Shown: piece after piece, positions 11,051 to 47,663 of the stretch
Numbering within the stretch: the first letter of the stretch is position 1
How the letters are laid out: each line of letters begins with the position of its first letter
Assembly: GCA_965202625.1 (NCBI GenBank)
Contig: CBDBBI010000010.1
Location: forward strand, 1,019,050-1,083,049
Length of the DNA stretch: 64,000 nucleotides
Origin: a bacterium
GTDB lineage: Bacteria; UBA8248
Direction: 5' to 3'
Position numbers and translations under genes: made by a program
Notes under the pieces: generated by a model
The model's database searches: none
Seen by the model: the letters and a program-made list of their open reading frames with translations, nothing else
Told to the model about the DNA's origin: nothing

Positions 11051-11055
11051 CCAGT

Positions 11056-31318: not shown

Positions 31319-31635
31319 TGGCCACGCTCGGCGAACTCGCCAAACTCATTCGCTCGAAAAACGCCGGACCTTTCCACCTCACGTTCGACGTCATGTTCGA
31401 CGAGGAGGCCGTCTATCGGCGCGTGGTGGACGCAAACGTCCTCACCAAAGAGGCGTTTTGCCGCATCTACAATCTGGAAGAGGAGAAGGTGCTGCTCGTG
31501 TGCCACGACGCCGCGCGGGCGATTAAAATATCCATTCCGCGCCCCGTGTCCTCCTGCGACCTGGAGGATGGCGACTGCTACGGTGGGCAGCAGTTCGGCC
31601 CCCTCGTCAACCTGGAGATTCCGGAGATTTCATAA
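31318..31635 (+). CDS. DUF4387-family protein (partner of AtuA/DUF1446)
   Basis: The 105-aa ORF is coupled to the upstream gene by a TGATG overlap. The sequence MATLGELAKLIRSKNAGPFHLTFDVMFD is typical of DUF4387. Confidence 0.65.
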   Translation: MATLGELAKLIRSKNAGPFHLTFDVMFDEEAVYRRVVDANVLTKEAFCRIYNLEEEKVLLVCHDAARAIKISIPRPVSSCDLEDGDCYGGQQFGPLVNLEIPEIS

Positions 31636-31743: not shown

Positions 31744-32352
31744 ATGGCGATTCAGACGAACGCAGATGAGATTCGCGCACTTTTCCCTGAAGTGTGCCAA
31801 ATTGAAGACGCGGAGTTGCGCGAAGGGGTGATACGCATCTGGCTTGAGGTGGCCGAGGAAACCGCCTGGGAGCGTTTTGAGGACGTCCCCAAAAACCTGA
31901 AGGAAGAGAAGCACATGACGCTCATCGGCCACGTCCAGGGCGTCACGCGCATGGCTCTCGCCATGGCCGACGTCGCCCAGAAACTTCACGGCGTCGCCAT
32001 CGACCGCGACCTGCTGATCGCCTCCTGCCTTCTGCACGACGTCTCCAAACCCCTGGAGTCCGCCCCTCATTCCGGCGGCTCCCCCACAGGCGGGCGCGTG
32101 CCGCCGGCCAGAATCACCGAATTTGGCGAGAAAATCCAGCACGGCGTTTACGGAGCGCACAAAATATGGAAACGAAGCCTCCCCAAAACCCTGGAGCTGG
32201 CCCACCTCGTCATCACCCACGCGCGCGCGAGCAACACGCGCGCAAAAAGCTATGAGGCCGCCCTGCTCTTCTACGCCGACTGGGCAGATTCGGACGCCGG
32301 CATCGTCTCAGGCGGCGGGACGCCCTTCTCCGCCAGATGGGTGGAGGGGTAG
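31744..32352 (+). CDS. HD-domain phosphohydrolase
   Basis: H...HD motifs are present (LIGHVQG...SCLLHDVSKP). Length is 202 aa. Confidence 0.7.
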   Translation: MAIQTNADEIRALFPEVCQIEDAELREGVIRIWLEVAEETAWERFEDVPKNLKEEKHMTLIGHVQGVTRMALAMADVAQKLHGVAIDRDLLIASCLLHDVSKPLESAPHSGGSPTGGRVPPARITEFGEKIQHGVYGAHKIWKRSLPKTLELAHLVITHARASNTRAKSYEAALLFYADWADSDAGIVSGGGTPFSARWVEG

Positions 32353-32505
32353 GGGGAGGCACCCCCGGCCTTCGCATTCAGAAAACACTCCCATGTTCCC
32401 GAAATAGATTGACGTCCGGATAACTTTGTCCTATAGCATTACGTTTTAGAAAGACCACATAAAAAATATCAAGACATCCTTGGCACATTCTGGGAGCTTT
32501 TCCGT

Positions 32506-33519
32506 ATGAAGTGGCGCAAAATAGAAGGAAAAATAGCGCATACAGTTATGAGAGCGGGATTTTTCCTCAAGAGATTTCCGTTTATTATTCTCCTCTTTAC
32601 GACTGGCTGCGCCACGGTTGCTCCTTCCACCACTCCGGTGGAAGCTCCCGTATCTAGGGCCGCCCAGAAAAAAGCGCAACAAAAGGCTCTCACTCCCCAG
32701 AGAAAGATACTCAAGCGCAAAATCGCGATTGGCCGCTTCACCAACGAGACGCGTTACGGCAAGACTTTCTTGCGAGACGGGGACACCGACCCTTTAGGAA
32801 AGCAAGCTTCCGACATGCTCGCCAATCGCCTCGTAAGTTCCGGGAAATTTCTGGTTTTTGAGCGTCCGGACCTTGTGAAAATCAAGCGCGAACAAAGCGT
32901 CCTAAAAAAATCCAACCTGATCGGCGTGGACGTCCTTATCTTGGGGTCGGTGACGGAGTTCGGTCGCTCCACCACGGGCCAGTCCGGCTTCTTGAGTGCG
33001 ACGAAAAAGCAGACTGCGCAGGCGAAGGTCGAAATACGTATGGTGGACGTACGGACGGGGCACGTGTTTTTCTCCGCCTCCGGCTCAGGAGAGGCAAGTA
33101 CCGAATCGGGGGAAGTCGCCGGCTTCGGCAGTCGGGCGGGCTACGACGCCACGCTGAATGACAAGGCGATTGGCGCCGCCATATCCGACTTCCTGAATTC
33201 CCTTATCTCGAAAATCGATGAGAGAATTTGGAGAACGGACATCCTGCGAATCAAGGGAAGCGAGATCATCATCACTGGCGGCAGACGGCAGGGGATTCAG
33301 ATCGGTGACGTATTAAACGTGATGAGAGAAGGAGAACGGGTGAAGAGCAGGCAAACTGGCTTTGAAATTTCGCTTCCCCCTTCAAAGGTCGGCGAAATAC
33401 GGATTGTCAGCCTTTTTGGAGATACCGAAACCAATGAAGGGTCAGTGGGCACAATCTTGTCGGGAACGTTTCCTGGAAGTCGGACGGATGGACTCTTCGT
33501 TTCAGAGATAAGGAAATAA
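32506..33519 (+). CDS. CsgG-family (curli-type assembly/transport) lipoprotein
   Basis: A lipobox LFTTGC is followed by the CsgG core (KIAIGRFTNETRYG...DMLANRLVSSGKFLVFER). Confidence 0.7.
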   Translation: MKWRKIEGKIAHTVMRAGFFLKRFPFIILLFTTGCATVAPSTTPVEAPVSRAAQKKAQQKALTPQRKILKRKIAIGRFTNETRYGKTFLRDGDTDPLGKQASDMLANRLVSSGKFLVFERPDLVKIKREQSVLKKSNLIGVDVLILGSVTEFGRSTTGQSGFLSATKKQTAQAKVEIRMVDVRTGHVFFSASGSGEASTESGEVAGFGSRAGYDATLNDKAIGAAISDFLNSLISKIDERIWRTDILRIKGSEIIITGGRRQGIQIGDVLNVMREGERVKSRQTGFEISLPPSKVGEIRIVSLFGDTETNEGSVGTILSGTFPGSRTDGLFVSEIRK

Positions 33520-33524
33520 TTTCG

Positions 33525-33854
33525 ATGAAATTATTTGTTGCGGGCTTTCTGCTCATGCTCCTCACCGTTGGTTGCTATCCATCAAGCGAGGTTCGGGTGA
33601 CGGACAGTAGACCGAGGCTAGCCATCAAGAACGCCCCAAAGAACGCCATCATCTATGTCGATGGGCTGAATTTGGGATTCGCGAACCAATATAGCGGAGA
33701 CCAGTCGAGTGACGAGAGTGGAGAGGTGCGCGTCCTTTTGTTAGAGCCGGGAAGGCACCTGATTGAGGTGAAGAGCGACGGCGAAACATTGCTTTCCGAG
33801 GATGTTTTCCTTGGAGAAGGCACACTGAAAACGCTGACAGTGAAACAGGAGTGA
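33525..33854 (+). CDS. small lipoprotein with PEGA-like beta-sandwich
   Basis: A lipobox LTVGC is followed by IIYVDGLNLG...GRHLIEVKSDG. Confidence 0.5.
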   Translation: MKLFVAGFLLMLLTVGCYPSSEVRVTDSRPRLAIKNAPKNAIIYVDGLNLGFANQYSGDQSSDESGEVRVLLLEPGRHLIEVKSDGETLLSEDVFLGEGTLKTLTVKQE

Positions 33855-33864
33855 GTAAAACGAA

Positions 33865-34239
33865 ATGATCACCAAAAGATTGTCCGTCCTGCTCGTCTCC
33901 ATCCTGATTTCAGCTTGCGCGCAGACAAAATACCATTGGGGCGGGTACGAAAACGCTTTATATCAATACTATAAAAGTCCAGCGGAGCTTGGGAGTCTCG
34001 CGAAAGAGTTAAGAGGTGCAATCACCCAGGGGGAACAGGATGAGAAAGTTCCGCCCGGCCTTTATGCCGAGCTCGGTTATGTGCTCCTCGTCCAAGGAAA
34101 GAAGCAGGAAGCCGTCACTTACTTTCAAAAAGAAAAGAAATTATGGCCTGAATCAGCCAAATTGATGGATACGATGGTTAAAATGGCGAAAACCTCCGGA
34201 GGCGTGAAATCTGCTGGCTCCAAGGGAGAAAATCGATAA
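33865..34239 (+). CDS. DUF4810-family lipoprotein
   Basis: A lipobox ISAC is followed by YHWGGYENALYQYY...VPPGLYAELGYVLL. Confidence 0.55.
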   Translation: MITKRLSVLLVSILISACAQTKYHWGGYENALYQYYKSPAELGSLAKELRGAITQGEQDEKVPPGLYAELGYVLLVQGKKQEAVTYFQKEKKLWPESAKLMDTMVKMAKTSGGVKSAGSKGENR

Positions 34240-34908
34240 ATGCTATCAAAAACATTCGCATCAGGAGTTCTTGTTACGATATTGCTCGTCTCAGGTTGCG
34301 CTGCTCGCCCAAAACCATCGGATTTCACCAAATTCCGCAACGAAAATCCCAGATCGATTCTGGTCGTGCCTGCCATCAACAAGGCCGTTGAAGTCAACGC
34401 TCCAGATTATTTTCTTTCAACTATCTCGAAGCCTGTCGCTGAAAGAGGATTTTACGTATTTCCCGTGAACGTAGTGAAACGTGTAATGGAAGACGATGGT
34501 CTCGCTGATGCGAATTTGGTTCACAATGCCGACCCGAAACGCTTGGGAGAGATATTTGACGCCGATGCCATTCTTTACGTCTCGATAGATAGATGGGACG
34601 CGCAATATATTGTGTTCTCCACCCAGGTGACGGTGGAATTCACTTATGTTCTCAAGAGCGGTCGCACCGGCGAAGAGCTGTGGCGACGAACGGCAAAAAT
34701 GGTGTATTCGCCTCAAAGCAGCACGAATACGGGCAACCCTCTTGCCACTCTCATCATAATGGCGGCCCAGGCAGCTATTACGAAAGCGGCGCCGAACTAT
34801 ATCCCCTTGACCCAACAAGCCAACTTTTTAGCAGTCATTGAACCCGGACAAGGATTGCCCGCAGGCCCTTATCGAAAAGATTATCTGAAAGATCAGGACA
34901 AATTCTGA
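34240..34908 (+). CDS. DUF799-family lipoprotein (GNA1162-like)
   Basis: The start is adjacent to the previous stop (TAAATG). A lipobox LVSGC is followed by ILVVPAINKAVEVNAPDYF, which is typical of DUF799. Confidence 0.6.
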   Translation: MLSKTFASGVLVTILLVSGCAARPKPSDFTKFRNENPRSILVVPAINKAVEVNAPDYFLSTISKPVAERGFYVFPVNVVKRVMEDDGLADANLVHNADPKRLGEIFDADAILYVSIDRWDAQYIVFSTQVTVEFTYVLKSGRTGEELWRRTAKMVYSPQSSTNTGNPLATLIIMAAQAAITKAAPNYIPLTQQANFLAVIEPGQGLPAGPYRKDYLKDQDKF

Positions 34909-34914
34909 AGAACC

Positions 34915-35050
34915 ATAGTCGAAGTCGCTCTCTACTGAGCCGGATAGCCCGGCCCGGAGAGCGTCTCAGCGATCCTCCCCGTCGGCGATGCACGACGTCG
35001 TTCCCCGCAAAATTTTGACCGAGTGCGTCTGAACGGATGGGCGGCGAACA
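34915..35050. repeat. degenerate direct-repeat copy of the 3' end of the prpE-like acyl-CoA synthetase gene (left boundary of the inserted element)
   Basis: It aligns base by base with 42285-42470, beginning atagtcgaagtc... and including ccggatagccc, cgtcggcgatgc and ttccccg.aaaattttg.ccgag. The alignment contains an internal ~50-bp deletion and scattered mismatches. Confidence 0.7.
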
Positions 35051-35306
35051 ACAAGCTGAGGGCGGGACGTGCGCGAACCGGTAATAGGTTTTAGGTTTGT
35101 CCGAAGCCGCAACGCGCGGGCGATGAACACCCTCCGCCAGATGCAGTCTCTTGCTCGTGGATTTCAAGGCAAACGACTGACCTGGCAAGACCTCACGAAG
35201 TGAATCATCCCCATATCTGGGACGCTTGACTCCAAAAATCTACCTCATATCGAGTGAAAAAAGTCGAGAGTTCCGCTGGAGGACCGGAGCTATCGTTGGA
35301 AAGGGC

Positions 35307-36056
35307 TCATGCAGACCGCCTCGTCTGCTCTGCTGAAATATCCATAATACCCTGAGATTTCAATACCTCATCTCTGAGGACTACGCCTACAACGTCCAAG
35401 ACCTGCTTTAACGCAATGCCATTATTATAGGCGGACATTTGCATTGCTTCCCGTGGTATTTTTTCCGTTAAATCATCAAGGAGATTTTCTTGGGCATACG
35501 CAAAGCACATCTCCTGTATTTCGTAGGCATTCTTGTCTTTACCGCTTATTTGTTCCTTTAATGCTTCTGCATATCCCGAAATCCATTCGTTGATTTGTAT
35601 TTCTTCAGCAACCCTTTCCCCCAGTTCGCTGAGCCTGCGCGGGCTATCGGATTCCGTTGTTTCGGGAGGGGGCAATCGCGAAAAAATAGATTTTATGTCT
35701 GCTCGTATTTCCTTTACCTCATTTTTGATTTCGCTTCGTATTGCATTTGTTTCATTTTTGATTTCCGCTCGTATTGCATTTGTTTCATTTCTGATTTCGC
35801 TTCGTATTGCATTTGTTTCATTTCTGATTTCATCTCGTATTTCTTTTGTTTCATTGCTGATTTCATCTCGTATTTCTTTTATCTGATCTCGAATTTCTCC
35901 CATAAATGTCGATATGCTCTCTCCCTTTTCGTTTACTTTTGCAATCCATGTTGCAGCGCGTATTGCAGCCCATATTGCAAGAGCAAAGAGGACGACAATA
36001 ATGAGTAATATATTTCCTTTGAAGGCTTCAAGGAGAAATACGTTGATGGAGCTCAT
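35307..36056 (-). CDS. membrane-anchored protein containing about six tandem 11-aa repeats (NETNAIRSEIR-type coiled-coil)
   Basis: The 249-aa protein has an N-terminal TM helix, then the repeat block EIRDEIRNETNAIRSEIRNETNAIRAEIKNETNAIRSEIKNEVKEIRADIK. The gene's GC content is about 45%, against about 62% for the genome. Confidence 0.6.
   Translation of the reverse strand: MSSINVFLLEAFKGNILLIIVVLFALAIWAAIRAATWIAKVNEKGESISTFMGEIRDQIKEIRDEISNETKEIRDEIRNETNAIRSEIRNETNAIRAEIKNETNAIRSEIKNEVKEIRADIKSIFSRLPPPETTESDSPRRLSELGERVAEEIQINEWISGYAEALKEQISGKDKNAYEIQEMCFAYAQENLLDDLTEKIPREAMQMSAYNNGIALKQVLDVVGVVLRDEVLKSQGIMDISAEQTRRSA
35694..35895. repeat. 33-bp tandem repeat (about 5.5 copies) inside the gene above
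   Basis: Successive copies read gatttcgcttcgtattgcatttgtttcattttt, gatttccgctcgtattgcatttgtttcatttct, gatttcgcttcgtattgcatttgtttcatttct, gatttcatctcgtatttcttttgtttcattgct and further degenerating units. Confidence 0.75.
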
Positions 36057-36529
36057 AGCAAGACCTCACAAAATGAAAGGCATCCTTTGCTATTTGCTAA
36101 CCTGTTGTTTTGGATTTCTTGTCCGCCGCCCGTAAAAATGGATTTAGCGATTTCCTGCGCGGTTGCGGGCAGGGGTTTGATGACGTTCTTCAAAGTCCGG
36201 CCCGGCGACTTTGAAGTGTTCATAGGCGCCCCCCTATGGCGACATATCATGTTCAGGTGAAAAATCCACCTGAGCAAATTTACCATATCACACCTTAAAA
36301 GAAACCTAATTTCATTATCCTTGACAAGTCAAAAACCGTTCTACTATACTCTCGCCTATCGTCAAGCAACTTGCAGAGCGGCCTTGGCTACCGTGTCGCC
36401 TGCCAAACGCAAAACCGCTCCGCGTGGGCGGAAACAGGCAGGAACCCACCACTGGGCTGTGCGTTGTTTGGCGACGGACCCGGCTTTGTCATTAGGCATG
36501 TTTCTTTTTTTCAGGGAGGAGGTCTCAAC

Positions 36530-37195
36530 ATGAAGAGATGGGGATTTCTGTGCGCAGCGGCTGCTCTCATTTTGGTCTTGTCGGCTCCCCTCATGGCAAG
36601 AGCACAAGAGGGGGGAAGTCAACAAGAGGGGGCGGGGAAATGGTATTGGAAATTCAACGTGGGGATATTGTCGCCAAGAGATTTGGAGAGCACCGCACCA
36701 CCCTCACCTACCCTCAACGCGGACATTGATACCGGGGTTTTCGTGAGCACCTCCGTTGGCCGTTCTTTCGGTCGCCTGAGGGGAGAGGTGGAGGTTTTGT
36801 ATGGAGAAGTCGATTACACACTGGACGCAACTACAAGAGGCGTGAACGGAGACGTCGTCGACATCACTCGCATCGGGGGGGAGTTCGCGGAGTTCGAAGC
36901 CAAAATTACGGGGCTGATGTTCAACGCATGGTTTGACCTGGGCGCGAGCGACTGGGCACTCAACCCCTACGTAGGGGGAGGGGTTGGAGTGATGCATCTC
37001 GACGTGCCACGTGGTACCGACAGCGGCTTCTCCTGGCAACTCGGTGCGGGCGCAATTTTTCCCATAGGCAATAATCTGGCACTTGACGCCAGCTACCGGT
37101 TTCTGAACACCGCCTACGAACCTGAAATTTTCTCTATTGTGTATGAGGATATCGAGGCACACGCATTCTTGCTGGGCATCAAGCTCACGTTCTAG
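36530..37195 (+). CDS. outer-membrane beta-barrel protein (OmpW/opacity-porin-like)
   Basis: An RBS GGGAGGAGG precedes the start. The signal peptide is MKRWGFLCAAAALILVLSAPLMA. Alternating-hydrophobic beta strands are present and the C-terminus ends in aromatic LTF. Confidence 0.7.
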   Translation: MKRWGFLCAAAALILVLSAPLMARAQEGGSQQEGAGKWYWKFNVGILSPRDLESTAPPSPTLNADIDTGVFVSTSVGRSFGRLRGEVEVLYGEVDYTLDATTRGVNGDVVDITRIGGEFAEFEAKITGLMFNAWFDLGASDWALNPYVGGGVGVMHLDVPRGTDSGFSWQLGAGAIFPIGNNLALDASYRFLNTAYEPEIFSIVYEDIEAHAFLLGIKLTF

Positions 37196-37210
37196 TCCGA
37201 TTCGCACAAG

Positions 37211-37250
37211 GCCGGCCCCTGCTGATGCGGGGCCGGCTTTTGTTTTTGTG
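37211..37250 (+). terminator. rho-independent terminator after the OMP gene
   Basis: A GC hairpin ggccggcccc-tgctgatg-cggggccggc is followed by ttttgtttttgtg. Confidence 0.6.
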
Positions 37251-37341
37251 CTCGTTGCCCAAGGGAGTCGCCAACCCCAAAAACACCCAGCGGGCACAGG
37301 AATTGCTCGGCAGCGGGGGCCGGGGAGGCAGCTGGCTTTGC

Positions 37342-38103
37342 TTAAGAGGTGAGGAGAGATTTCTCCTGAATGGTTCTTGATGGGTTGATTCCAAACGCTT
37401 GAGGCATTTCAGTCCACGTTCTGCCATCCAGCGTTCGACCCGTCTTTTTCTTGAATACGCCGCCCCATTGCTTGAAGAAAAAAGGCGTGCCGCTGCCCAC
37501 GCAATTATCCCGAATCTCTCGCGCCCAGTCCGGCTCCATGGGCCTTGCGCCCGGACCGCTTTCGCCGCCGACGATGACCCAGTCAATGCCGTCCAGATCC
37601 AGACTCGGCAAGGGTTCAAGCAGCGGCTCAAGAGAGAGAAACTTCGTTCGGGCACCCGTTTGCCGGAGCAGGCGCGCCCGGTTCAGAAAATCCGCAGACT
37701 CAATGCTCGTCCCCAGCCAGATGTTCGGCGTCCAGCGAAGCCGCCGGCTCCACCGGACAGCGCGTCCCGGCCGCTTCGTGAGCACCTGAAACGTGTGCTG
37801 GGTCGCGCGGTTCATCACCCCGAACACGGCCTCAAGGAAGTCCAGCGGCACCGCTCGGTGAAACAGATCGCTCATAGAGTTCACGAAAACAAGGCGCGGC
37901 TTGCGCCACTTCAGAGGCTCTTCCAGAATGGATGGGTGGGTTCTGAGCGAAAAGCCGTCCGCGTACTTGCGGGTCCCCATCCCCTGGAGCCGCCTCGACA
38001 TCCGCGCAGCGTAACAATGCTTGCACCCGGGGCTGATCTTCGTGCAACCGGTAGTCGGGTTCCAGGTGATTTCCGTCCACTCTATGCCGGAAACTTTAGG
38101 CAT
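37342..38103 (-). CDS. phage Gp37/Gp68-family protein (DUF5131)
   Basis: Trimmed to MPKVSGIEWTEITWNPTTGCTKISPGCKHCYAARM, the family's three-Cys N-terminus. The upstream gene's stop lies 2 nt before this ATG. Confidence 0.8.
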   Translation of the reverse strand: MPKVSGIEWTEITWNPTTGCTKISPGCKHCYAARMSRRLQGMGTRKYADGFSLRTHPSILEEPLKWRKPRLVFVNSMSDLFHRAVPLDFLEAVFGVMNRATQHTFQVLTKRPGRAVRWSRRLRWTPNIWLGTSIESADFLNRARLLRQTGARTKFLSLEPLLEPLPSLDLDGIDWVIVGGESGPGARPMEPDWAREIRDNCVGSGTPFFFKQWGGVFKKKTGRTLDGRTWTEMPQAFGINPSRTIQEKSLLTS

Positions 38104-38105
38104 GG

Positions 38106-38846
38106 CTAAATGTGACCCAGAATGTGGCCTGCAATCCGAGTAGCTGGAGCAATTCCCCTGGGGTGGCCTACGCAAAACATAAATTCAAATAGCGCCGAAT
38201 TCTTGGAGTTTTTAAGAGTTCGGGATTTTTCGAGAAACCTGTCTCTAAATAAGCACTTAAGATTTCTTTTGTATATGGAGGTCAGGCCCCCGACGCCAGA
38301 GTCTCTCTCATAATGAAGACCTCCAAATAGATCAGTGTTTTCCTGATACAGGCCTCTCCATCTCTCATCACCGAATACTTTTGTGAGTCGCTCAGCCCAC
38401 TTTGGCTCAACTTCCTCGGGCATTCTTGATTTCGGCAACATCCTAGCAACAGCGGACGTAGGGAAGAGAATCCAGGTATCGAGCACCTTAAGGTTGGCTA
38501 TCTTTTCAATAGTCGCCCATGCAACTTCCGTGGCGAAGCGCCGCTTCGCCGCCGCGTCCGCCGCGCAAAACCCGCTGTCGTGGGCCTCCGAGGTTGCCAC
38601 AATGTGTTCAATGTCCGTCTGGTGCCTGCTGGAAAACGTCCGCCCGGTGTATGGCCCATACGTCCGGCCCCCAAGACCGGCAACGATGCGGGCCTCAAGA
38701 GATTGCGAATACGGATAGTCGCGCCGCTTGTCGTAGGGTGCGCACCGGTGCTCGGGTGCGACCACGAGGCCGCGCCAGGTGTCAGCGGCCCACATGGTTG
38801 CGGGAGTGAGCGCAACGAGAGCGAAAACGAATATACACAAAATCAC
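38106..38846 (-). CDS. secreted DUF1524/HNH-like nuclease-family protein with an uncharacterised C-terminal half
   Basis: The ORF has a GTG start and a signal peptide. The N-terminal half (...HRCAPYDKRRDYPYS...GPYTGRTFSSRHQTDIEHIVATSEAHDSGF) matches the C..PYD / PYTG / DI(D/E)H(V/I)V pattern of DUF1524. It is translationally coupled to the Gp37/Gp68 gene. Confidence 0.45.
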   Translation of the reverse strand: MILCIFVFALVALTPATMWAADTWRGLVVAPEHRCAPYDKRRDYPYSQSLEARIVAGLGGRTYGPYTGRTFSSRHQTDIEHIVATSEAHDSGFCAADAAAKRRFATEVAWATIEKIANLKVLDTWILFPTSAVARMLPKSRMPEEVEPKWAERLTKVFGDERWRGLYQENTDLFGGLHYERDSGVGGLTSIYKRNLKCLFRDRFLEKSRTLKNSKNSALFEFMFCVGHPRGIAPATRIAGHILGHI

Positions 38847-38876
38847 CCTTCATCCACCCCCTTGGTGCCGACCGCC

Positions 38877-39197
38877 TTAACGGTTTCCCTCTTTGCATCG
38901 AACGCGGTAATAGATTCGGCTGCCCGCAGCGCCGAGGTTATATTCCCGAATCACTTTCCGCTCGAAAATCTCGTATCCACCGGGGCACAAGTCGTTGTCA
39001 GTGAGGTAGAGCTTGAGCCTCGATAGTCTGTTGGATTCAGCGGAGGAGCTGTCATGCGGAGTGAGCGGGCCAGCTACCGCCTCGTACTGAAACGTCCCGT
39101 CGGACAATGGCCTGAATCTGGTATCGAATATAGTGTCGTGCGCAGAACAACCCATTAATGCCAGGAACGCAAAAACGGCCAGGCCTTTCGCAAACAT
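38877..39197 (-). CDS. small lipoprotein, copy 1 of a tandemly duplicated pair
   Basis: The start MFAKGLAVFAFLALMGCSAHD is preceded by GGAGGAGG. The protein is about 70% identical to copy 2 and has conserved Cys (DLCPGGYE, RVRCKEGNR). Confidence 0.55.
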   Translation of the reverse strand: MFAKGLAVFAFLALMGCSAHDTIFDTRFRPLSDGTFQYEAVAGPLTPHDSSSAESNRLSRLKLYLTDNDLCPGGYEIFERKVIREYNLGAAGSRIYYRVRCKEGNR

Positions 39198-39255
39198 CGG
39201 CTCCTCCTCCCTCAAAAAGTCCGCGCCATCCAGCACACCTCTCCCAAAACCTCCG

Positions 39256-39335
39256 CACCGCGCGGAGGCGGGATGGGCTCCCACGCCGGATGATCGCTCT
39301 CCAGAATCCACCGCCCCTCCACCCACACCGCGCGC
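39256..39335 (-). pseudogene. orphan fragment of the 3' end of the S24 repressor gene (copy a)
   Basis: The 80 bp are near-identical to 39756-39835 inside the intact repressor gene and would encode ...WVEGRWILESDHPAWEPIPPPR. The fragment is part of a ~485-bp tandem duplication unit. Confidence 0.6.
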
Positions 39336-39363
39336 GGCCACAGCGAACAGGCTGCAGACCGCC

Positions 39364-39690
39364 TTAACGGTTTCCCTCTTTGCATCGAACGCGGTAATGG
39401 ATTCTGTGGGCCAAAGCGTCGGAGCCATATTCCCGAATCGCTATCCGCTCGAAAACCTCGTATCCACCGGGGCACAAGTCGTTGTCAGTGAGGTAGAGCT
39501 TGAGCCTCAATAGTCTGTTGGCTTCAGCGGAGGCACTCTTCGGCGGATAGAACGGGCCAGCTACCGCCTCGTACTCAAACGTCCCGTCGGACAATGGCTT
39601 GAATCTGTGATCGTATCCAGTGATGCGCGCAGTAGTACAACCCATTAATGCCAGGAACGCAAAAACGGCCAGGCCTTTCGCAAACATCAT
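39364..39690 (-). CDS. small lipoprotein, copy 2 of a tandemly duplicated pair
   Basis: The start MMFAKGLAVFAFLALMGCTTARI is preceded by GGAGGAGG. The gene lies directly 3' of the repressor gene on the same strand. Confidence 0.55.
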   Translation of the reverse strand: MMFAKGLAVFAFLALMGCTTARITGYDHRFKPLSDGTFEYEAVAGPFYPPKSASAEANRLLRLKLYLTDNDLCPGGYEVFERIAIREYGSDALAHRIHYRVRCKEGNR

Positions 39691-39701
39691 CTCCTCCTCC
39701 C

Positions 39702-40478
39702 TCAAAAAGTCCGCGCCATCCAGCACACCTCTCCCAACACCTCCGCCCCGCGCGGAGGCGGGATGGGCTCCCACGCCGGATGATCGCTCTCCAGAATCCA
39801 CCGCCCGTCCACCCACACCGCGCGCTTGACCAGCAAGCCATCCTCGCCGCGCACCACGAATATCCGTCCGCTGTGCAGGTGCTTTTTTTTCATGTCAATG
39901 AGAATGGAGCAACCCGCCGGCAGCGTCGGCTCCATGGATTCGCCCGCCACGCGGATGATGCGGCACTGGGCGGCCTCCAGCCCTTGCTCCCTCAGCCACT
40001 CCGCGCGAAACGCCAGACGTCCCGCCACCGTCTCGCTGTCCGCCTCCGCACCGCCTCCCGCCGCCGCGTCCACCTCCACGATTTCCACGTGACGGAAATG
40101 GAAAGCGTCCGTATTTCCGGCGGCCTCCGATTCTGCCGCGTCGCGCAATTTGTCCAGGGTACCGGCCGCATCGCGCAAGCGGGAGAGCTCCGCATCGAAA
40201 GCCTCCTCCAGCATTCGCTTCGCCGAGCCCTCCTGGAGTGCCGCCGCCCCTGATGCATCGGGCACCCCTGATGCACCGGGTGGGGCGACGAGAGGAAATT
40301 CAATGCCCAGAGCTTCGCAAATCTGGGCGGCGCGCCCGATAGAAGGTTGCTGTCCGTCCAGGATTCCCTGGAAACTTCGCACAGGAATCCCCGCACGCAT
40401 TGCCGCCGCGCGTACGGACTCACCATTCCTTGCGAGGTGATCACGAACATCTTTCACAAACCGTTCCCTTACTCCCAT
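39702..40478 (-). CDS. XRE-family HTH repressor with C-terminal S24 (LexA/cI-type) peptidase domain
   Basis: Trimmed to MGVRERFVKDVRDHLARNGESVRAAAMRAGIPVRSFQGIL, which contains the HTH. The C-terminus ...RVAGESMEPTLPAGCSILID...LLVKRAVWVDGRWILESDHPAWEPI is the S24 Ser/Lys fold. Confidence 0.8.
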   Translation of the reverse strand: MGVRERFVKDVRDHLARNGESVRAAAMRAGIPVRSFQGILDGQQPSIGRAAQICEALGIEFPLVAPPGASGVPDASGAAALQEGSAKRMLEEAFDAELSRLRDAAGTLDKLRDAAESEAAGNTDAFHFRHVEIVEVDAAAGGGAEADSETVAGRLAFRAEWLREQGLEAAQCRIIRVAGESMEPTLPAGCSILIDMKKKHLHSGRIFVVRGEDGLLVKRAVWVDGRWILESDHPAWEPIPPPRGAEVLGEVCWMARTF

Positions 40479-40575
40479 GTGGCAATGTATAGCATATTGT
40501 GCCCCCAAATTGCCATTGGCATTATAATGCAAATATGGGCTTGACATCTTGGCGTAATAAAGCCATATTGGCCTT
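40479..40575. promoter_or_regulatory. divergent intergenic control region between the cI-like repressor and the cro-like gene, with candidate operator palindromes
   Basis: Palindromes tgccattggca (40511-40521) and gccatattggc (40562-40572) are present. Plus-strand hexamers TTGACA (40543-40548) and TATAAT (40523-40528) are also present. The region is AT-richer than its flanks. Confidence 0.35.
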
Positions 40576-40824
40576 ATGACGCCAAACCAGATCATCCACC
40601 TTATAGACGTCATGGCCGAGGCGACCGCCCGAAGCCCGCACACGCTCGCCCGCTACGCTGCCGGCTCCGGAGATTTCTACGCGCGCCTGAAGGTTGGACA
40701 CGACATCACGACCCGCCGCGCCGCGCGCGTCGTTCAATGGTTCTCCGATCAATGGCCCTCCGACCTGGAGTGGCCGTCGGACGTTCCCCGCCCTGTGCCG
40801 AAAGCGAAGGAGAGTGCCGCGTGA
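40576..40824 (+). CDS. small hypothetical protein divergent from the repressor (cro-like position)
   Basis: The ORF is 82 aa. The true start may be the internal ATG at 40612. Its stop overlaps the GTG of the next ORF (GTGA). Confidence 0.35.
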   Translation: MTPNQIIHLIDVMAEATARSPHTLARYAAGSGDFYARLKVGHDITTRRAARVVQWFSDQWPSDLEWPSDVPRPVPKAKESAA

Positions 40825-41579
40825 GCGGGTGCGATCTGCGGGTGATAACGGAGGAATCCCCCCCCGTTTCGCCGGCGAAACAGGCACACGAAGCGCCGCG
40901 GCCCCTCTTTCATGAAGGGCTTGGGCGGGATCGCTGGGCGGAGATCGGGCGCGATCTTTCCCACTGGGCGGAGAACACGCAATGGGAAATGGGAGAATGG
41001 GCTCTGTTTGGGGAGGCGTCTTTTGGCGAGAGGACGCTGCGGGAGGTGGCGTCCGGTCTGAAAATCAGCGCGGGCAAACTGTCCAACTGCCGACTGGTCG
41101 CCAAGAATTTCCCCGCGTTTCGCCGGCGAAACGCCTTGAGTTTTTCTCACCATCTCGAAGTGGCGCGCCTGCCGCAAGCGGAGGGCGACGAAATTCTCGC
41201 CCGCGCCGAGGCGGATGGATGGACGCGAGAGCAGATTCGGAAGGAAGCGCGCGAAGCGCGGGCGGCGGTGCTGGCGTGCCTGGTGCGCGAGAACGAGGCG
41301 CTTCGCGCGGAGAATGCGCGGCTCAAAACCACGCCGGCGGCGGCGAAGGATGCGGCGCGCGACCTGGAGAGACGCGCGAAGGCCGCCGCCCGAAAGGTGA
41401 GCGCGGCGTTTGCGGACCTCGCGCGGGTACTGGGCGAGGCGGGTGCATCGGCGGAAATCACAGGTTTGCACGGCAACGCGCGCGCGGCACTCGACGCGCG
41501 CCTGAAACGCATCGTGTGCTCGGCTGGAAGGGATGCGGCCGGCGTGCAGATGCGCTTCACTTTCGGGGCGGGCGAATGA
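40821..41579 (+). CDS. hypothetical protein with coiled-coil C-terminal half
   Basis: The ORF is 253 aa from the GTG at 40821 and has typical high-GC codon usage. Its stop overlaps the next ATG (ATGA). The longer track ORFs 40737 and 40982 are N-terminally over-extended. Confidence 0.4.
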   Translation: MSGCDLRVITEESPPVSPAKQAHEAPRPLFHEGLGRDRWAEIGRDLSHWAENTQWEMGEWALFGEASFGERTLREVASGLKISAGKLSNCRLVAKNFPAFRRRNALSFSHHLEVARLPQAEGDEILARAEADGWTREQIRKEAREARAAVLACLVRENEALRAENARLKTTPAAAKDAARDLERRAKAAARKVSAAFADLARVLGEAGASAEITGLHGNARAALDARLKRIVCSAGRDAAGVQMRFTFGAGE

Positions 41580-42235
41580 ATCCCCACGCCCGTGAAACCG
41601 CCCAGCAACCCTCTTTCATCGCCCTGGAAACGCCCGAAAAACTCCCTTGCAACGACCTGGAAACCGCCTGGAACGCCGCCACGGACGCCCAGAAAGAGCG
41701 CGCCGTCAAGCGGCTGCGTGCGGTCGAGCGTTCCGAGGCTTTGGCGGCGGAGGGGATAGTGCGCGCGGAGGCGGACGGAATAGCGGCACTTGAATGCGGC
41801 GCGTCCAAATCCGCCGTCGCCACCTGGCGGCGTCGCGCACGAGGTGCGGGGCGGGGAGATAGACTGCGCACGCTTCTTGACGCACCGGGGCGCGGACGGC
41901 CGCGTGCAGAATGGACGGGCACGGCGGCGGAGACGCTCTGGACGCTGTGGCGCACGGACTGGCTCCGAGAGGAAGCACCGGATGCGGCGGCGGCACATCG
42001 GCGGGTGGAGGCGGTCGCCCAGGCGCGGGGCTGGGAATGTCCGCCCCTCCAGGCGTTCACCCGCAGGGTGCGGCGCGAGGTTTCCCGCCGCGAAGTCGTA
42101 CGCGCGCGCAAGGGTGCCCTCGCCGCCATGAACACCTCGCCCCACCAGACGCGAAGCGTGGAGGCGGGATGGGCTCCCACGCCGGATGATCGCTCTCCAG
42201 AATCCACCGCCCCTCCACCCACACCGCGCGCTTGA
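41576..42235 (+). CDS. hypothetical protein whose C-terminus is read through an antisense copy of the repressor 3' end
   Basis: The ORF is 220 aa from the ATG at 41576 and shares a frame with the tail of track ORF 40982..42235. The last ~25 codons lie inside repeat copy c, so the gene may be 3'-truncated or fused. Confidence 0.35.
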   Translation: MNPHARETAQQPSFIALETPEKLPCNDLETAWNAATDAQKERAVKRLRAVERSEALAAEGIVRAEADGIAALECGASKSAVATWRRRARGAGRGDRLRTLLDAPGRGRPRAEWTGTAAETLWTLWRTDWLREEAPDAAAAHRRVEAVAQARGWECPPLQAFTRRVRREVSRREVVRARKGALAAMNTSPHQTRSVEAGWAPTPDDRSPESTAPPPTPRA

Positions 42236-42247
42236 CCAGCAAGCCAT
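42158..42247. repeat. third copy (c) of the S24-repressor 3'-end repeat, abutting the right boundary of the inserted element
   Basis: The sequence gaggcgggatgggctcccacgccggatgatcgctctccagaatccaccgcccctccacccacaccgcgcgcttgaccagcaagccatc matches 39756-39842. Confidence 0.65.
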
Positions 42248-42302
42248 CTCGGTAGAGGCACACGTCGGCTTTTGTTCTTGTTCAATAGTCGAAGTCCCTC
42301 CT

Positions 42303-44198
42303 CTACTTCCCCGGATAGCCCAGGCCGGCGAGGGTCTCGGCGATCTCGGGCAGGATGGCCGGGTCGTCAATGGTGGCAGGTGCCTTGTATTCCTCGCCGT
42401 CGGCGATGCGCGACATCGTTCCCCGTAAAATTTTGCCCGAGCGCGTCTTGGGCAGGCGCTTCACCACTGCCGCCTGACGGAATGCGGCCACGGCGCCGAT
42501 CTGGCGGCGCACGAGCTGCACCACCTCGCCGACGACCTCCGCATCCTCCCTCTCAACGCCCGACGTCAAGACCAGAAAACCGAGGGGAAGCTGGCCCTTG
42601 AGCTGATCCTTCACTCCGATGACGGCACACTCCGCCACGTCGGGATGCGAGGTCAACACCTCCTCCATCGCGCCCGTGGAGAGCCTGTGGCCCGCCACGT
42701 TGATGATGTCGTCCGTCCTCGACATCACATAGACGTAGCCCTCCTCGTCCACGTAGCCGGCATCGCCCGTTTTGTAGAAGCCCGGATATTCGCTCAGATA
42801 GGAATCGACAAAACGCGCGTCCGCGTTCCAGAGGGTGGGGAGACAACCGGGCGGCAGGGGCAGTTTGACGCACAGCGCGCCCATCTCGCCCGCACCCAGT
42901 GCGCGGCACTCGCTGTCGAGAACCCGAAAATCGTAGCCGGGAACGGGCTTCGTGGGGGAGCCGTATTTGACGGGCAGATGCTCGATTCCGATGGAGTTCG
43001 CCAGCATCGGCCAGCCGCTCTCCGTCTGCCAATAGTGGTCGATGACGGGAACCCCCAGCTTATCCTCCGCCCACTGCACCGTGTCCGGGTCGGATCGCTC
43101 CCCCGCCAGAAAAAGGGTGCGGAAACAGCCGAGGTCGTAATTTCGCATGAGTTCAGCGTCCGGATCATCGCGCTTGATAGCGCGAAACGCCGTGGGCGCC
43201 GTGAACAAAACCTTCACCCCATGCTCGGAGATGACGCGCCAGAAAGCGCCTGCGTCGGGCGTGCCCACGGGCTTGCCCTCAAACAGGATGGTCGCGCAGC
43301 CGTGGAGCAGCGGCGCATACACGATGTAGGAATGCCCCACCACCCAGCCTACGTCGGACGCCGCCCAGAACACCTCGCCCGGCGCCACGCCATACACGTT
43401 TCGCATCGACCACTTGAGCGCCACCATGTGGCCGCCGTTGTCTCGAACCACCCCCTTGGGCTGTCCCGTCGTGCCCGAGGTGTAGAGGATATAAAGGGGG
43501 TCCGTGGCGGCGACGGGAACACAGGCCGCAGGCATCGCGCCCCGCAGCGCATCGCCCCATTCGACGTCGCGGCCCTCGATGAGCTCCGCCTCCGCCTGGG
43601 CGCGCTGCAGGATGACGCACTTCTCCGGCTTCACGCTCGAGAGGTTGATCGCCTCATCGAGCAGGGGCTTGTAGGCGATGACGCCCGAGGGTTCCACTCC
43701 GCACGAGGCGGATATCATGAGTTTCGGCTTTGCGTCCTCGATCCGCGCCGCCAGCTCGTTCGGTGCGAACCCGCCGAAGACGACCGAGTGCACCGCGCCG
43801 ATGCGCGCGCAGGCGAGCATGGAGATCGCCGCCTCGGGTACCATCGGCATGTAGATGATGACGCAGTCGCCCTTCTCCACCCCCAGGGATTTGAGCGCGC
43901 CCGCGAAATGCGCCACCTCGCGCAGCAACTCCCCATAGGTGAACTTTCGGGCAGGCGCACCCGTGATGGGGGTGTCGTATATCAGGGCGAGTTGATCCGC
44001 GCGTCCCGCCTCGACGTGACGATCCAGTGCGTTGTAGCAGGTGTTGACCTCGCCTCCTGCGAACCAGCGATAGAAAGGAGGGCGGGAATCATCCAGCACC
44101 CTCTCCCATCTCTTGTGCCAGTGCACGTCCTCCGCCGCCTCCGCCCAGAACGCCTCCGCGTCCAAGAGAGAGCGGGCGTGAACCTCTGCGTAGCCCAT
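42303..44198 (-). CDS. prpE: propionate--CoA ligase / acetyl-CoA synthetase family (AMP-forming)
   Basis: The 631-aa protein has an N-terminus like PrpE (EAFWAEAAEDVHWHKRWERVLDDSRPPFYRWFAGGEVNTCYNALDRHV), the AMP-binding motif YTSGTTGQPKGV and the C-terminus RLPKTRSGKILR. Confidence 0.85.
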   Translation of the reverse strand: MGYAEVHARSLLDAEAFWAEAAEDVHWHKRWERVLDDSRPPFYRWFAGGEVNTCYNALDRHVEAGRADQLALIYDTPITGAPARKFTYGELLREVAHFAGALKSLGVEKGDCVIIYMPMVPEAAISMLACARIGAVHSVVFGGFAPNELAARIEDAKPKLMISASCGVEPSGVIAYKPLLDEAINLSSVKPEKCVILQRAQAEAELIEGRDVEWGDALRGAMPAACVPVAATDPLYILYTSGTTGQPKGVVRDNGGHMVALKWSMRNVYGVAPGEVFWAASDVGWVVGHSYIVYAPLLHGCATILFEGKPVGTPDAGAFWRVISEHGVKVLFTAPTAFRAIKRDDPDAELMRNYDLGCFRTLFLAGERSDPDTVQWAEDKLGVPVIDHYWQTESGWPMLANSIGIEHLPVKYGSPTKPVPGYDFRVLDSECRALGAGEMGALCVKLPLPPGCLPTLWNADARFVDSYLSEYPGFYKTGDAGYVDEEGYVYVMSRTDDIINVAGHRLSTGAMEEVLTSHPDVAECAVIGVKDQLKGQLPLGFLVLTSGVEREDAEVVGEVVQLVRRQIGAVAAFRQAAVVKRLPKTRSGKILRGTMSRIADGEEYKAPATIDDPAILPEIAETLAGLGYPGK

Positions 44199-44716
44199 GC
44201 CTTCTCCTTCCAGGGAAAACCTGTATCTTTATTTTCATGATCACGTGAAGACGCATCATACCAAACTCCGCCTCTGCCTGCCTGGAGGATTCTTCGCAGA
44301 TGCACAAACCCTCGACGCGCGCGACGCCGCCAGTCCCGAACCCATCATCAAAAACGGGATGGCGAGGCCCCATAATAAAACCCCATGCGCACTCGATGCA
44401 CACCCCTTGCATCGTTTGTGCAACGCCCTTTCCCGCCCCCTGAAACGGCGGGTTTTCCAGGGGATTTTCTTCTGAAAAACCGGCGCATTTTTCACCCGTT
44501 CGCAATGATTTTCATCGGGCCAGAGCGGCGAGAAAACGATTTCGCCAAGGGAGGCACCGCATTTCAAGCGATAGGCGTTGCGCACGGACGCCTCCAGGTC
44601 GAGAATTTCGTCTTTCACGGACATTTTTTTGCGCCTTTCGCCCAGGTCATTTTTTGCTATACTTCTCCCCATGGTGTTTGCTTTCGTGAGTTGCTCTCAT
44701 TCCAAAGGGGCGATCC

Positions 44717-45175
44717 ATGGCGTCATCAGAGACGAAAGCGGCACCTGACGGGCGGCGCGGCTTCATCGCCACCCTCTTTATGCTTGGCGGCCTCATCGTC
44801 AGCTATGGAACGGCCGCCGTCTATGGATTGCGCTATCTTTTCGGCAGGCAGCTTCCTCCCCGCATGACGCAAGTCCTCACCGCCACCCTTTCCGCCATCC
44901 CCGACGGCGGAAGCATCATCGGGAGCGATCTGTCGGGCAGAAAATTCCTGCTCGTGCGCGCGGGCGATACGGTGCGCGCGTTTTCCACCGCCTGTACCCA
45001 TCTGGGATGCCAGGTCTATTGGCAGGACGAGAAGAAGGTGTTCTTCTGTCCCTGCCACAACGGCTTCTTCGACGCCGACGGCAACCCCACGTCGGGGCCT
45101 CCGCCCACACCGCTCGCCCAATACCCCGTCGAAATACGCGGGACGAGCATTTTCGTCACCATGCCCGAGGCCTGA
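44717..45175 (+). CDS. Rieske [2Fe-2S] subunit of a cytochrome bc-type complex, with Tat signal
   Basis: A twin-arginine motif RRGFIATL is present. The cluster boxes are CTHLGC and CPCHNG. Confidence 0.85.
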   Translation: MASSETKAAPDGRRGFIATLFMLGGLIVSYGTAAVYGLRYLFGRQLPPRMTQVLTATLSAIPDGGSIIGSDLSGRKFLLVRAGDTVRAFSTACTHLGCQVYWQDEKKVFFCPCHNGFFDADGNPTSGPPPTPLAQYPVEIRGTSIFVTMPEA

Positions 45176-45178
45176 GCC

Positions 45179-46234
45179 ATGAACAGCCGGATTCCGCGCT
45201 GGGTCGGAGAGCGAATTCCCTTCGACTGGGATCACCTCAAGCACATCACGAGCGAACCCATTCCGCGTCACCTGAAAAAATGGTGGTTTTGCGTGGGCGG
45301 AACCCCGCTGTATCTGTTCCTCATTCAAATCCTCACGGGCATCGCCCTCACCTTCTACTACGTGCCCGAGCCGGGCAAGGCGTATGAATCGGTGCGCCAC
45401 ATCACCGAGGCGGTCCCCTTCGGCTGGTGGGTTCGCGGAATACACCGCTGGGCGGGAGAGCTGATGGTGGTGACCGTCATCCTGCACATGATGCGGGTAT
45501 TCTTCACGGGTGCGTATCGCAAACCCCGCGAGATCAACTGGCTCATCGGCATGGGACTTCTCATCACCATATTCACCTTCGGCTTCACGGGCTATTCCCT
45601 GATCTACAACCAACTCTCTTACTGGGCGACCGTGGTGGGCACCAACATCGCCGCAGCGGTGCCCGTGGCAGGCCCCTATCTCGCCGGCTTCATCCGCGGA
45701 GGGCCCGTCATCAGCGCGAACACGCTGACGCGCTTCTACGTGCTCCACATCGGCATTTTGCCGACCACCGCCTTCATCCTGCTCGCCCTCCACATCTTTT
45801 TCATCCGCATTCACGGGGTGAGCGAATTCATCGACCCCCGCGACGAGGAAGCGAAAAAAGACCGATTTTTCCCGTTTTTCCCCGATCACCTCCTGACCGA
45901 AGTAGCCCTTGGGGTTTTTCTCATATTTCTGGTCAGTCAGCTGGCCATCATCTTTCCCGCGCAGATGGGCGCGCCGGCGAATCCGGCCATCACGCCTGAA
46001 CACATCAAGCCTGAGTGGTATTTCTACCCGGTGTTCCGCTGGCTGAAGCTGTTCTCCTTCGAGACGGGCATCATCGGCGCAATTCTCATCGTCATCGTCA
46101 TGTTCGCCTGGCCCTGGGTGGACGCCGCCCTGGAACGCCGGGCGCCCGGGCGGGACGTCAGCATATACGTGGGGGTGCTCGCCGTCCTCGCCATGACGAT
46201 ATTCATGATCATCGAGGGCCTTTCAGGCCACTAG
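45179..46234 (+). CDS. cytochrome b (b6 plus subunit-IV-like fused, 351 aa)
   Basis: Multi-TM protein with conserved haem-ligating His in helices B and D and the PEWY-like segment IKPEWYFYP. Confidence 0.85.
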   Translation: MNSRIPRWVGERIPFDWDHLKHITSEPIPRHLKKWWFCVGGTPLYLFLIQILTGIALTFYYVPEPGKAYESVRHITEAVPFGWWVRGIHRWAGELMVVTVILHMMRVFFTGAYRKPREINWLIGMGLLITIFTFGFTGYSLIYNQLSYWATVVGTNIAAAVPVAGPYLAGFIRGGPVISANTLTRFYVLHIGILPTTAFILLALHIFFIRIHGVSEFIDPRDEEAKKDRFFPFFPDHLLTEVALGVFLIFLVSQLAIIFPAQMGAPANPAITPEHIKPEWYFYPVFRWLKLFSFETGIIGAILIVIVMFAWPWVDAALERRAPGRDVSIYVGVLAVLAMTIFMIIEGLSGH

Positions 46235-46258
46235 GAATAATGAGGAAGGGAGGAACTC

Positions 46259-47599: not shown

Positions 47600-47663
47600 A
47601 AAAAGCCGAGGGGCCAGCGCAAGAGAGGGCGGTTTTGCGTCCGCCGATTTCGGAATGCGCCTC

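Follow-up and report, generated by a model that had tools for sequence, protein, structure and literature searches.

Downstream of a prpE-like acyl-coenzyme A (acyl-CoA) ligase gene, in a 64,000-nucleotide window from a bacterium of the GTDB lineage UBA8248 (assembly GCA_965202625.1, contig CBDBBI010000010.1, positions 1,019,050 to 1,083,049), we found about 10 kb of DNA that is missing from the closest relatives available. This island is a mosaic: at least four modules, unrelated to one another and each truncated, make it up, and parts of it have been duplicated internally. One of the modules is the immunity and early region of a Mu-like transposable phage. Its right-hand part is bracketed by direct repeats of the 3' end of prpE. 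Judging from the damage to the left, attachment site (att)-like copy of the repeat and from the reduction of a transposase gene to a stump, nothing in the island seems able to catalyze movement now. A preliminary description of the window had taken positions 34915 to 42470 for a single, recombinase-free element; we revise this to a fossil island that holds the stump of a Mu-like phage. The region is an ordinary graveyard of prophage and island DNA and no new kind of mobile element. Our preferred reading is that a decayed mosaic island, no longer mobile, occupies a variable gap next to the 3' end of prpE and that an integrase made its repeat; this is a tentative reading to which we give slightly less than an even chance.

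Extent and foreign character of the island

The closest comparison genomes were two complete chromosomes of metagenome-assembled genomes (MAGs), L001 (OZ253442.1) and L002 (OZ242260.1), whose prpE products share 85% amino acid (aa) identity with that of the window. Nitrospinota MAGs came next (73 to 77%), and our prpE scan returned nothing closer than 85% aa in genomes or 78% aa in metagenomes. In L001 and L002, prpE is followed by the gene for a 300-aa EamA transporter, then by homologs of an HD-domain gene, a DUF4387 gene, and the genes beyond. The window counterparts lie at 31744-32352 (HD-domain gene) and 31318-31635 (DUF4387 gene), and the gap between prpE and the HD-domain gene measures about 10 kb (32353-42302) versus 1.1 to 2.6 kb in the two relatives. 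Both relatives have one prpE 3' end, no repeat, and none of the island genes, which were also absent from all 160 prpE loci that we fetched. Compared with L001 and L002, the lineage-specific DNA thus runs from 32353 to 42302, and the boundaries proposed in the preliminary description are not supported.

Composition points the same way. The GC content is 40 to 55% from about 32250 to 36500, a drop that begins well to the left of the left repeat, and GC at third codon positions (GC3) is 36 to 73% for every gene between 32.5 and 42.2 kb versus 78 to 84% in the flanking host genes. These values mark the DNA between the repeats as foreign, as had been supposed; it is missing from L001 and L002, and part of it is phage derived. 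The repeats bracket only the right-hand ~7.2 kb of the larger lineage-specific region, however, and an operon with no counterpart in L001 or L002 precedes them.

32506-34908, plus strand: low-GC (47 to 53%) four-gene operon encoding CsgG-like, PEGA-like, DUF4810, and GNA1162/DUF799-like lipoprotein products, assigned by Pfam

L001 carries its own unrelated low-GC (37 to 46%) gene, at 13060-14352 between prpE/EamA and the HD-domain gene, which encodes a 430-aa cysteine-containing repeat protein. This insert suggests that the gap between prpE and the HD-domain gene is a variable spot in the lineage generally.

Direct repeat of the prpE 3' end

The repeat involves the following features.

42303-44198, minus strand: intact prpE-like acyl-CoA (propionate--CoA) ligase gene, 631 aa, with host-like GC3 (0.83)
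42285-42458, minus strand: right repeat copy, comprising the last ~51 codons of that gene (from about codon 580 of 631), its TAG stop (42303-42305), and 18 bp downstream
34915-35047, minus strand: left repeat copy, a displaced pseudogene fragment of the prpE 3' end in which a deletion of 47 bp shifts the frame and the conserved KTRSG motif carries substitutions

The prpE-like product has the Pfam domains ACAS_N, AMP-binding, and AMP-binding_C and matches the NCBIfam propionate--CoA ligase model with an E value of 6e-229, under the equivalog cutoff. Local alignment of 34900-35100 with 42270-42520 gave a score of 129, compared to 19.4 ± 3.3 (maximum, 34) for 300 composition-matched shuffles. The preliminary description had recognized the region at 34915 as a degenerate copy of the prpE-like 3' end and had made this depend on a significant alignment; the observed score is far above every shuffle. 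By BLASTN, the similarity falls into two blocks, 34915-34974 with 42285-42345 (84%) and 34973-35030 with 42391-42448 (90%), and the prpE 3' end recurs nowhere else in the 64-kb window. Both copies open with the same letters, ATAGTCGAAGTC, and are 85% identical overall, with 47 bp missing from the left copy, which matches the shared opening, internal deletion, and mismatches originally reported.

We then compared the two copies with the prpE genes of L001 and L002. Although left and right are 85% identical to each other, either one is only 68 to 76% identical to L001 or L002, which makes the two copies each other's closest relatives. Counting only positions where L001 and L002 agree, 18 positions are common to both window copies and unlike L001/L002, with private changes at a further 8 positions in the left copy and 3 in the right. 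On our reading of the alignment, the differences of the left copy include nine nonsynonymous and five synonymous changes, and the nonsynonymous ones hit the K, R, and G of the invariant KTRSG. The left copy is a decaying pseudogene. For the functional 3' end of the gene (last 175 nucleotides [nt]), identity is 85% to L001 and 83% to L002; the remainder of the gene gives 84.5% and 83%, and third codon positions agree. The functional end therefore bears no sign of import from a distant source, and the data fit a native end as well as a mimic that came from a very close host. The duplication appears to have arisen within this lineage, after its split from L001 and L002, and with 15% divergence it is much older than the internal duplications of the island, which are 97 to 98% identical. 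Folding of the left repeat, and of a 93-nt core shared by copies of the repressor 3' end (see below), revealed nothing unusual, and an Rfam scan of 31.5 to 43 kb gave no match.

Remnant of a Mu-like phage

A Mu-like early and immunity region spans 39702-42178 and comprises the following predicted genes.

39702-40643, minus strand: S24 (LexA/cI-type) c repressor of a Mu-like phage, with a likely start at Met56 (40478), which gives a protein of 258 aa
40576-40824, plus strand: divergent cro/ner-like small open reading frame (ORF), with a promoter-like site at 40541-40569
40821-41579, plus strand: ParB/LmbU-like early gene (NCBIfam LmbU_fam, E = 5e-27, below cutoff), the stop of which overlaps the transposase start
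41576-42178, plus strand (ORF open to 42235): truncated Mu-type transposase, keeping only the N-terminal DNA-binding third, with the DDE core and C-terminal domain gone

Searching the proteins against PHROGs, as had been proposed, assigned the repressor to phrog_4, the transposase ORF to phrog_310, and a DUF5131 protein elsewhere in the island to phrog_2045. The repressor has a full-length Peptidase_S24 domain (E = 4e-14) in which the catalytic motifs GESMEP and VKR are both intact, and among cultured phages it best matches the c repressors of RcapMu and of phages of the D3112/JBD69 type. The ParB/LmbU-like ORF (280 aa; 252 aa in its database version, P0001) has three homologs (P0002 to P0004; 36 to 39% identity), all of them in uncultured Mu-like contigs, which we refer to as L173, L174, and L176. 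The repressor is 28 to 38% identical to its counterparts in such contigs (38% to L176), and the cro-like ORF is 50 to 57% identical to unannotated DNA of L174 and L176 that occupies the matching position, with the S24 repressor gene on one side and the first rightward gene on the other.

The transposase ORF carries the Mu I-gamma DNA-binding domain HTH_Tnp_Mu_2 (E = 5e-15). It aligns with positions 78 to 272 of the 696 of the phrog_310 transposase and is 53% identical to the 628-aa transposase of L173 over residues 34 to 219 (E = 3e-41). The protein is thus cut at about residue 215 of 628, leaving ~31 to 35% of the full length, and homology ends at about 42150-42178, where a stray repressor fragment starts. 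Taken alone, the fragment had no match in viral contigs, in a word-indexed protein search, or by tblastn against phage genomes; we settled its identity through the homologs of the neighboring 280-aa gene. In L174 the homolog overlaps a 625-aa transposase gene, in L173 one small gene lies between it and the 628-aa transposase, and the L176 contig stops inside the gene that follows. The transposases of L173 and L174 each carry HTH_Tnp_Mu_2, DDE_2, and Mu-transpos_C, and in both contigs a MuB-like ATPase gene comes next. Upstream, L174 and L176 have small cro-like ORFs and an S24 repressor gene in divergent orientation; in the corresponding position of L173 there is an S24-like match. The order of the immunity and early region in the window, with a leftward S24 c repressor followed by rightward cro/ner-like, ParB-like, and transposase genes, is the same as in L173, L174, and L176 and as in the annotated left arms of RcapMu and of JBD69, a Casadabanvirus of the D3112 type. 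Identities to the uncultured relatives range from 28 to 57%.

Unlike these phages, the window lacks DDE_2, Mu-transpos_C, MuB, structural genes, and recognizable ends, and it keeps only ~2.5 kb of a genome of ~37 to 40 kb. The right arm is gone, and the left side has been rearranged by a 488-bp duplication. Neither the DDE core nor MuB was found in the window with close queries (53% identical in the N-terminal region), and the remainder of the transposase is nowhere in the window. When we searched the window with the early proteins of RcapMu and JBD69 by BLAST, only the repressor matched, and structural PHROGs gave nothing beyond low-complexity coiled-coil matches. Pfam found no domain, of a recombinase or otherwise, in X-masked six-frame translations of the gaps not covered by ORFs, and three tyrosine integrases had no tblastn match in the window, in a search of limited sensitivity. 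The Mu-like relatives, in turn, contain none of the other island genes.

These comparisons identify 39702-42178 as the early/immunity remnant of a Mu-like transposable phage. The island accordingly contains a recombinase gene, yet no functional recombinase. The statement that no recombinase ORF was present is correct as regards function, but one of the two "overlapping-stop" ORFs mentioned in the preliminary description is the truncated Mu transposase. Its suggestion of a decayed prophage or satellite-like island can likewise be kept in part: the Mu-like remnant is that of a prophage, but no satellite hallmark was seen. We searched for phage satellites of the PICI, P4-like, PLE, and cf-PICI types with Pfam, PHROGs, and NCBIfam and rejected them, as there was no integrase, no replication or primase gene, and no helper-exploiting packaging gene.

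In two of the Mu-like contigs (L173, 652-921; L176, 852-1109), a small protein with an Acb2/Tad1 hairpin domain (PF24729, an anti-defense sponge family) is encoded beside the Mu Gp36 gene.

Other cargo and internal duplications

The rest of the bracketed DNA holds genes that are unrelated to the Mu-like remnant.

35307-36056, minus strand: predicted protein with a membrane anchor, tandem repeats of 33 nt (11 aa), and a unique domain at the C terminus, 41% GC
36530-37195, plus strand: predicted outer membrane beta-barrel protein (OMP), OMP_b-brl, E = 1e-14
37342-38175, minus strand: intact gene of the DUF5131 (phage Gp37/Gp68) family, component B of the PADLOC candidate system PDC-M41, Pfam E = 4e-98
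38106-38846, minus strand: chimeric ORF, 246 aa, with an unrelated N terminus joined to the C-terminal half of TcmP/PDC-M41A
38877-39200 and 39364-39690, minus strand: two duplicated lipoprotein genes, one in each 488-bp unit
38866-39352 and 39353-39842: tandem duplication of a ~488-bp unit, each with a lipoprotein gene and ~140 nt of the 3' end of the S24 gene
42126-42284, minus strand: third, isolated copy of the S24 repressor 3' end, 98% identical to 39750-39842 over 93 nt

The repeat-protein gene, previously put at about 45% GC, had no informative relative in Pfam or PHROGs; a homolog search with its C-terminal domain gave one weak match, on a 1.8-kb contig. The OMP gene has a promoter-like site at 36321-36350 (11 of 12 positions matching) and, in line with the terminator originally described, an intrinsic terminator at 37210-37248 (hairpin z = -4.5).

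The DUF5131 protein matches phrog_2045 (E = 1e-93) and positions 4 to 235 of 241 of PDC-M41B (E = 1e-111). In the ORF upstream, residues 1 to 103 consist of a signal peptide and a weak HNH-like stretch, and residues 104 to 244 align with positions 139 to 258 of 263 of TIGR04474 (E = 1e-11) and with positions 154 to 295 of 298 of PDC-M41A (E = 1e-27). The breakpoint is near 38535, where GC content steps from 49% to 60%. This arrangement resembles the known TcmP/DUF5131 pair (TIGR04474; PDC-M41) in that a full-length DUF5131 gene has a co-oriented TcmP-related ORF immediately upstream. Unlike in that pair, the TcmP-related ORF is a C-terminal half fused to an unrelated N terminus, so that component B is full length and the component A beside it is half length. 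With only this half kept, the pair is probably nonfunctional as a system. A literature search for TcmP gave nothing relevant, and of the papers searched only one mentions DUF5131. The preliminary description had paired the Gp37/Gp68 gene with a DUF1524 nuclease. The first member is strongly supported, but we rejected the second: there was no Pfam match at an E value of 0.01, the only candidate being HNH_4 (E = 0.065), and the C-terminal half is the TcmP fragment.

The two duplicated lipoprotein genes, the S24 repressor, and the divergent cro-like gene were all borne out as first described. Identity between the 488-bp units is mosaic. It reaches 97% in the repressor 3' end and in the part encoding the signal peptide of the lipoprotein but only 87% in the part encoding the mature lipoprotein, where the two proteins differ by many amino acid changes. 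This divergence suggests diversifying selection or recombination between two phage alleles. The stray third copy of the repressor 3' end adjoins the stump of the transposase gene on one side and lies 36 bp from the right prpE repeat on the other. Three independent rearrangement breakpoints fall within ~130 bp of the S24 repressor 3' end (39750-39842, 39826-39842, and 42150-42284), namely, the junction of the 488-bp duplication and each end of the stray copy.

Origin of the repeat

The arrangement at prpE is att-like, with repeats of the 3' end of the target gene bracketing the DNA, and it has a precedent in the insertion of e14 and phage 21 at icd of Escherichia coli. There, too, the protein-coding gene is intact, its duplicated last ~163 to 170 bp lie at the far end as a pseudogene fragment (a 163-bp pseudo-icd' in the case of e14 [PMC6379469]), and the inserted DNA is a defective, mosaic prophage region. 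Apart from the target gene, which is icd for e14 and prpE-like in the window, the two cases differ in that e14 keeps its integrase beside the att site while the window has no integrase or fragment of one, and in that the displaced copy of the window, with 15% divergence and a 47-bp deletion, is much more decayed.

Under the history that we prefer, a Campbell-type single crossover would have brought foreign DNA into prpE at its 3' end. An incoming circular element would have brought a ~170-bp copy of the gene end, most likely in a site-specific event of the type by which e14 and phage 21 enter icd. The crossover would have left prpE intact and displaced the second copy of its end by ~7.4 kb, and the displaced copy would then have decayed as a pseudogene. 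Later, a Mu-like transposable phage may have inserted into the island and lost more than 90% of its genome by deletion, with the immunity/early region and the transposase stump staying behind. Further local duplications and deletions would have truncated the TcmP/DUF5131 pair and removed the original integrase. The preliminary description had regarded the repeat as the scar of site-specific integration. Its geometry is indeed that of e14 at icd, but three processes fit this geometry, and the data do not separate them: the action of an integrase, host recombination of DNA from a close relative, and local duplication followed by accretion.

Several observations weigh against the integrase history. 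No integrase gene or fragment was found among the ORFs (Pfam, PHROGs, and NCBIfam), in the gaps, or in the window as a whole, so the site-specific step is one that we purely infer. A mimic of the prpE 3' end occurred in none of the viral contigs scanned with the prpE C terminus, where the matches were only generic acetyl-CoA synthetase genes adjoining integrases. Comparison with L001 and L002 gave no sign that the functional prpE 3' end is of foreign origin. Some 2.5 kb of equally foreign low-GC DNA, the CsgG operon, lies outside the repeats. In the empty-site comparison that had been suggested, L001 and L002 each have a single prpE 3' end and no island; however, an exact empty site was found in no available genome or metagenome, and L001 and L002 are not exact ones, as their EamA gene is missing from the window, which has no remnant of it. 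We found no literature precedent for an acyl-CoA synthetase gene as a bacterial attachment site (attB), and among the 160 other prpE loci only one has a comparable duplication of the 3' end.

That locus (L156; Ga0181536_10027502, 1791-2364) belongs to a distant lineage. Its prpE homolog shares 66% aa identity with that of the window; next come a DUF4926 gene of 77 aa and then, in frame, a second copy of the last ~53 codons of the homolog (151 nt, 84%). The inner boundary of the duplication lies at the same conserved ARLPKTRSGK-coding sequence as in the window fragment, and the two copies differ mostly at synonymous sites (8 amino acid versus 24 nucleotide changes). The common boundary gives a weak hint in favor of a site-preferring process. 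By extension, integrative elements of an undescribed family, which supply a replacement 3' end, could use the A10-motif (ARLPKTRSGK) sequence near the 3' end of propionyl/acyl-CoA ligase genes as their attachment site, a proposal that we consider a long shot. If it were true, the window would contain an old member that has lost most of its content and L156 another that was reduced independently, the common inner boundary would be the core site of the recombinase, and intact members bearing an integrase would be expected at other prpE genes. Just past the second copy in L156, at 2432-2659, there is a weak match to the C-terminal fragment of an IS1595 transposase.

The repeat could instead have been made by host recombination with no integrase involved, which we regard as somewhat unlikely but credible. 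In this case, the 3' part of prpE and the adjacent island DNA of a close donor would have been anchored in prpE and joined illegitimately at the conserved A10 motif, displacing the 3' end of the recipient, through either homology-facilitated illegitimate recombination or the RecA-dependent single crossover of a circularized fragment. Such a route agrees with the lack of any recombinase remnant tied to the repeat and, as a close donor predicts, with two copies that come from the same or a very close lineage and a functional end that looks native. Furthermore, the inner boundary is the most conserved nucleotide stretch of the gene family and hence a natural microhomology or anchor, and the same boundary recurs in L156, where the insert is just the DUF4926 gene with no recombinase and where the mostly synonymous differences suggest that two functional alleles were brought together. 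Nevertheless, the donor arrangement, with prpE followed directly by this island, occurs in none of the 160 loci, the mechanism is known mainly from experimental transformation, and a 170-bp repeat around several kilobases is also the exact product of e14/phage 21-type integrases. Decidedly unlikely, in our estimation, is that the left fragment is the last remnant of a tandem prpE copy or local segmental duplication onto which mobile DNA accreted later, such that there was never one 7-kb element. Local duplication of prpE does occur, as seen in a Desulfobacteraceae MAG (L008; JAABRU010000126.1) whose tandem full-length paralogs on the same strand (8017-8454 and 11033-11470), ~3 kb apart, are 87% identical over the last 226 nt of their 3' ends. 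The window copies are sisters with differences that resemble neutral decay (5 synonymous to 9 nonsynonymous), the enclosed DNA is of several origins and ages (85% for the repeat versus 97 to 98% for the internal duplications), and the locus is variable in relatives too, with L001 having its own low-GC repeat-protein gene. Yet this account requires that a deletion endpoint match the L156 boundary by chance and that the 18 bp past the stop be duplicated as well, and there is no other trace of a second gene body.

Two further possibilities involve the mobile DNA itself. Direct repeats that bracket the DNA and an intact repressor/cro switch might suggest a still-functional, integrase-less, satellite-like element, mobilized in trans by a helper recombinase with the prpE repeats as att sites, a possibility that the preliminary description had allowed. 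We judge this to be very improbable. The left att-like copy has mutated (15% divergence) and lost 47 bp, which makes excision unlikely, and the contents are fragments of unrelated systems (a transposase stump, half of a TcmP gene, and a stray repressor 3' end). Searches with Pfam, PHROGs, and NCBIfam turned up no genes for replication, packaging, or capsid redirection, none of the collections searched contained a related copy of the island, and the repressor/cro switch belongs to the Mu-like remnant, i.e., to a transposing phage that does not use att sites. The idea that the repeat arose through transposition of the Mu-like phage into the prpE 3' end is hardly credible at all. It draws on the transposase stump and repressor fragment, which lie no more than 130 bp from the right repeat. 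Mu-type transposition generates target duplications of ~5 bp, however, not 170 bp, and we rejected it as the source of the repeat on this ground. In addition, the Mu-like module covers only 39.7 to 42.2 kb of the bracketed DNA, and its relatives are without the other island genes.

Among the viral contigs, three predicted IMG/VR proviruses (L164, 1983-3575; L165, 1983-3575; L166, 2001-3418) open with a complete acetyl-CoA synthetase gene, and a tyrosine-integrase-like gene in convergent orientation comes next. For L166, the translation of the intervening ORF (…GFEPR…) suggests a tRNA gene between synthetase and integrase, and the attachment site there is probably the tRNA and not the synthetase gene.

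Present function and significance

Despite the decay of the island, individual cargo genes may still be functional, namely, those for the S24 repressor, the two lipoproteins, the OMP, and the DUF5131 protein. It is possible that the S24 repressor and the divergent promoter region (40478-40576) confer immunity to related Mu-like phages. An intact S24 repressor that has outlasted the other parts of its phage is a classic candidate for superinfection immunity that has become domesticated, and immunity is an advantage that has been proposed for "grounded" prophages (PMC6379469).

In its foreign composition, its combination of phage remnants with a defense-candidate gene and surface-protein genes, and its location at a site that varies among relatives, the island is like generic genomic or defense islands. 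It is unlike them in having no tRNA target and no integrase and in being flanked by a repeat of the 3' end of a protein-coding gene. For annotation, the result amounts to ~10 kb of decayed DNA, gained by horizontal transfer, in an uncultured, Nitrospinota-allied lineage, and it documents that the Mu-like phage lineage of L173, L174, and L176 infects, or formerly infected, this poorly known group. Wider interest lies only in a possible recurrence of insertion at the A10-motif region of prpE, for which two cases in 161 loci do not establish a pattern.

Surrounding region

The DNA upstream of prpE (44256-47627) contains a cytochrome b-like gene (45179-46234) and a multiheme cytochrome gene (46259-47599) with host-like GC3. 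Neither has a counterpart in the equivalent interval of L002, so that prpE is flanked on both sides by nonsyntenic DNA, and synteny returns only at 47628-50201 of the window. The sole tRNA gene of the window is a tRNA-Leu(TAA) at 20457-20539 on the minus strand. In two of the Nitrospinota genomes (L003 and L005), the genes found at 20851-22164 of the window are located close downstream of prpE, which points to a larger-scale rearrangement of the neighborhood.

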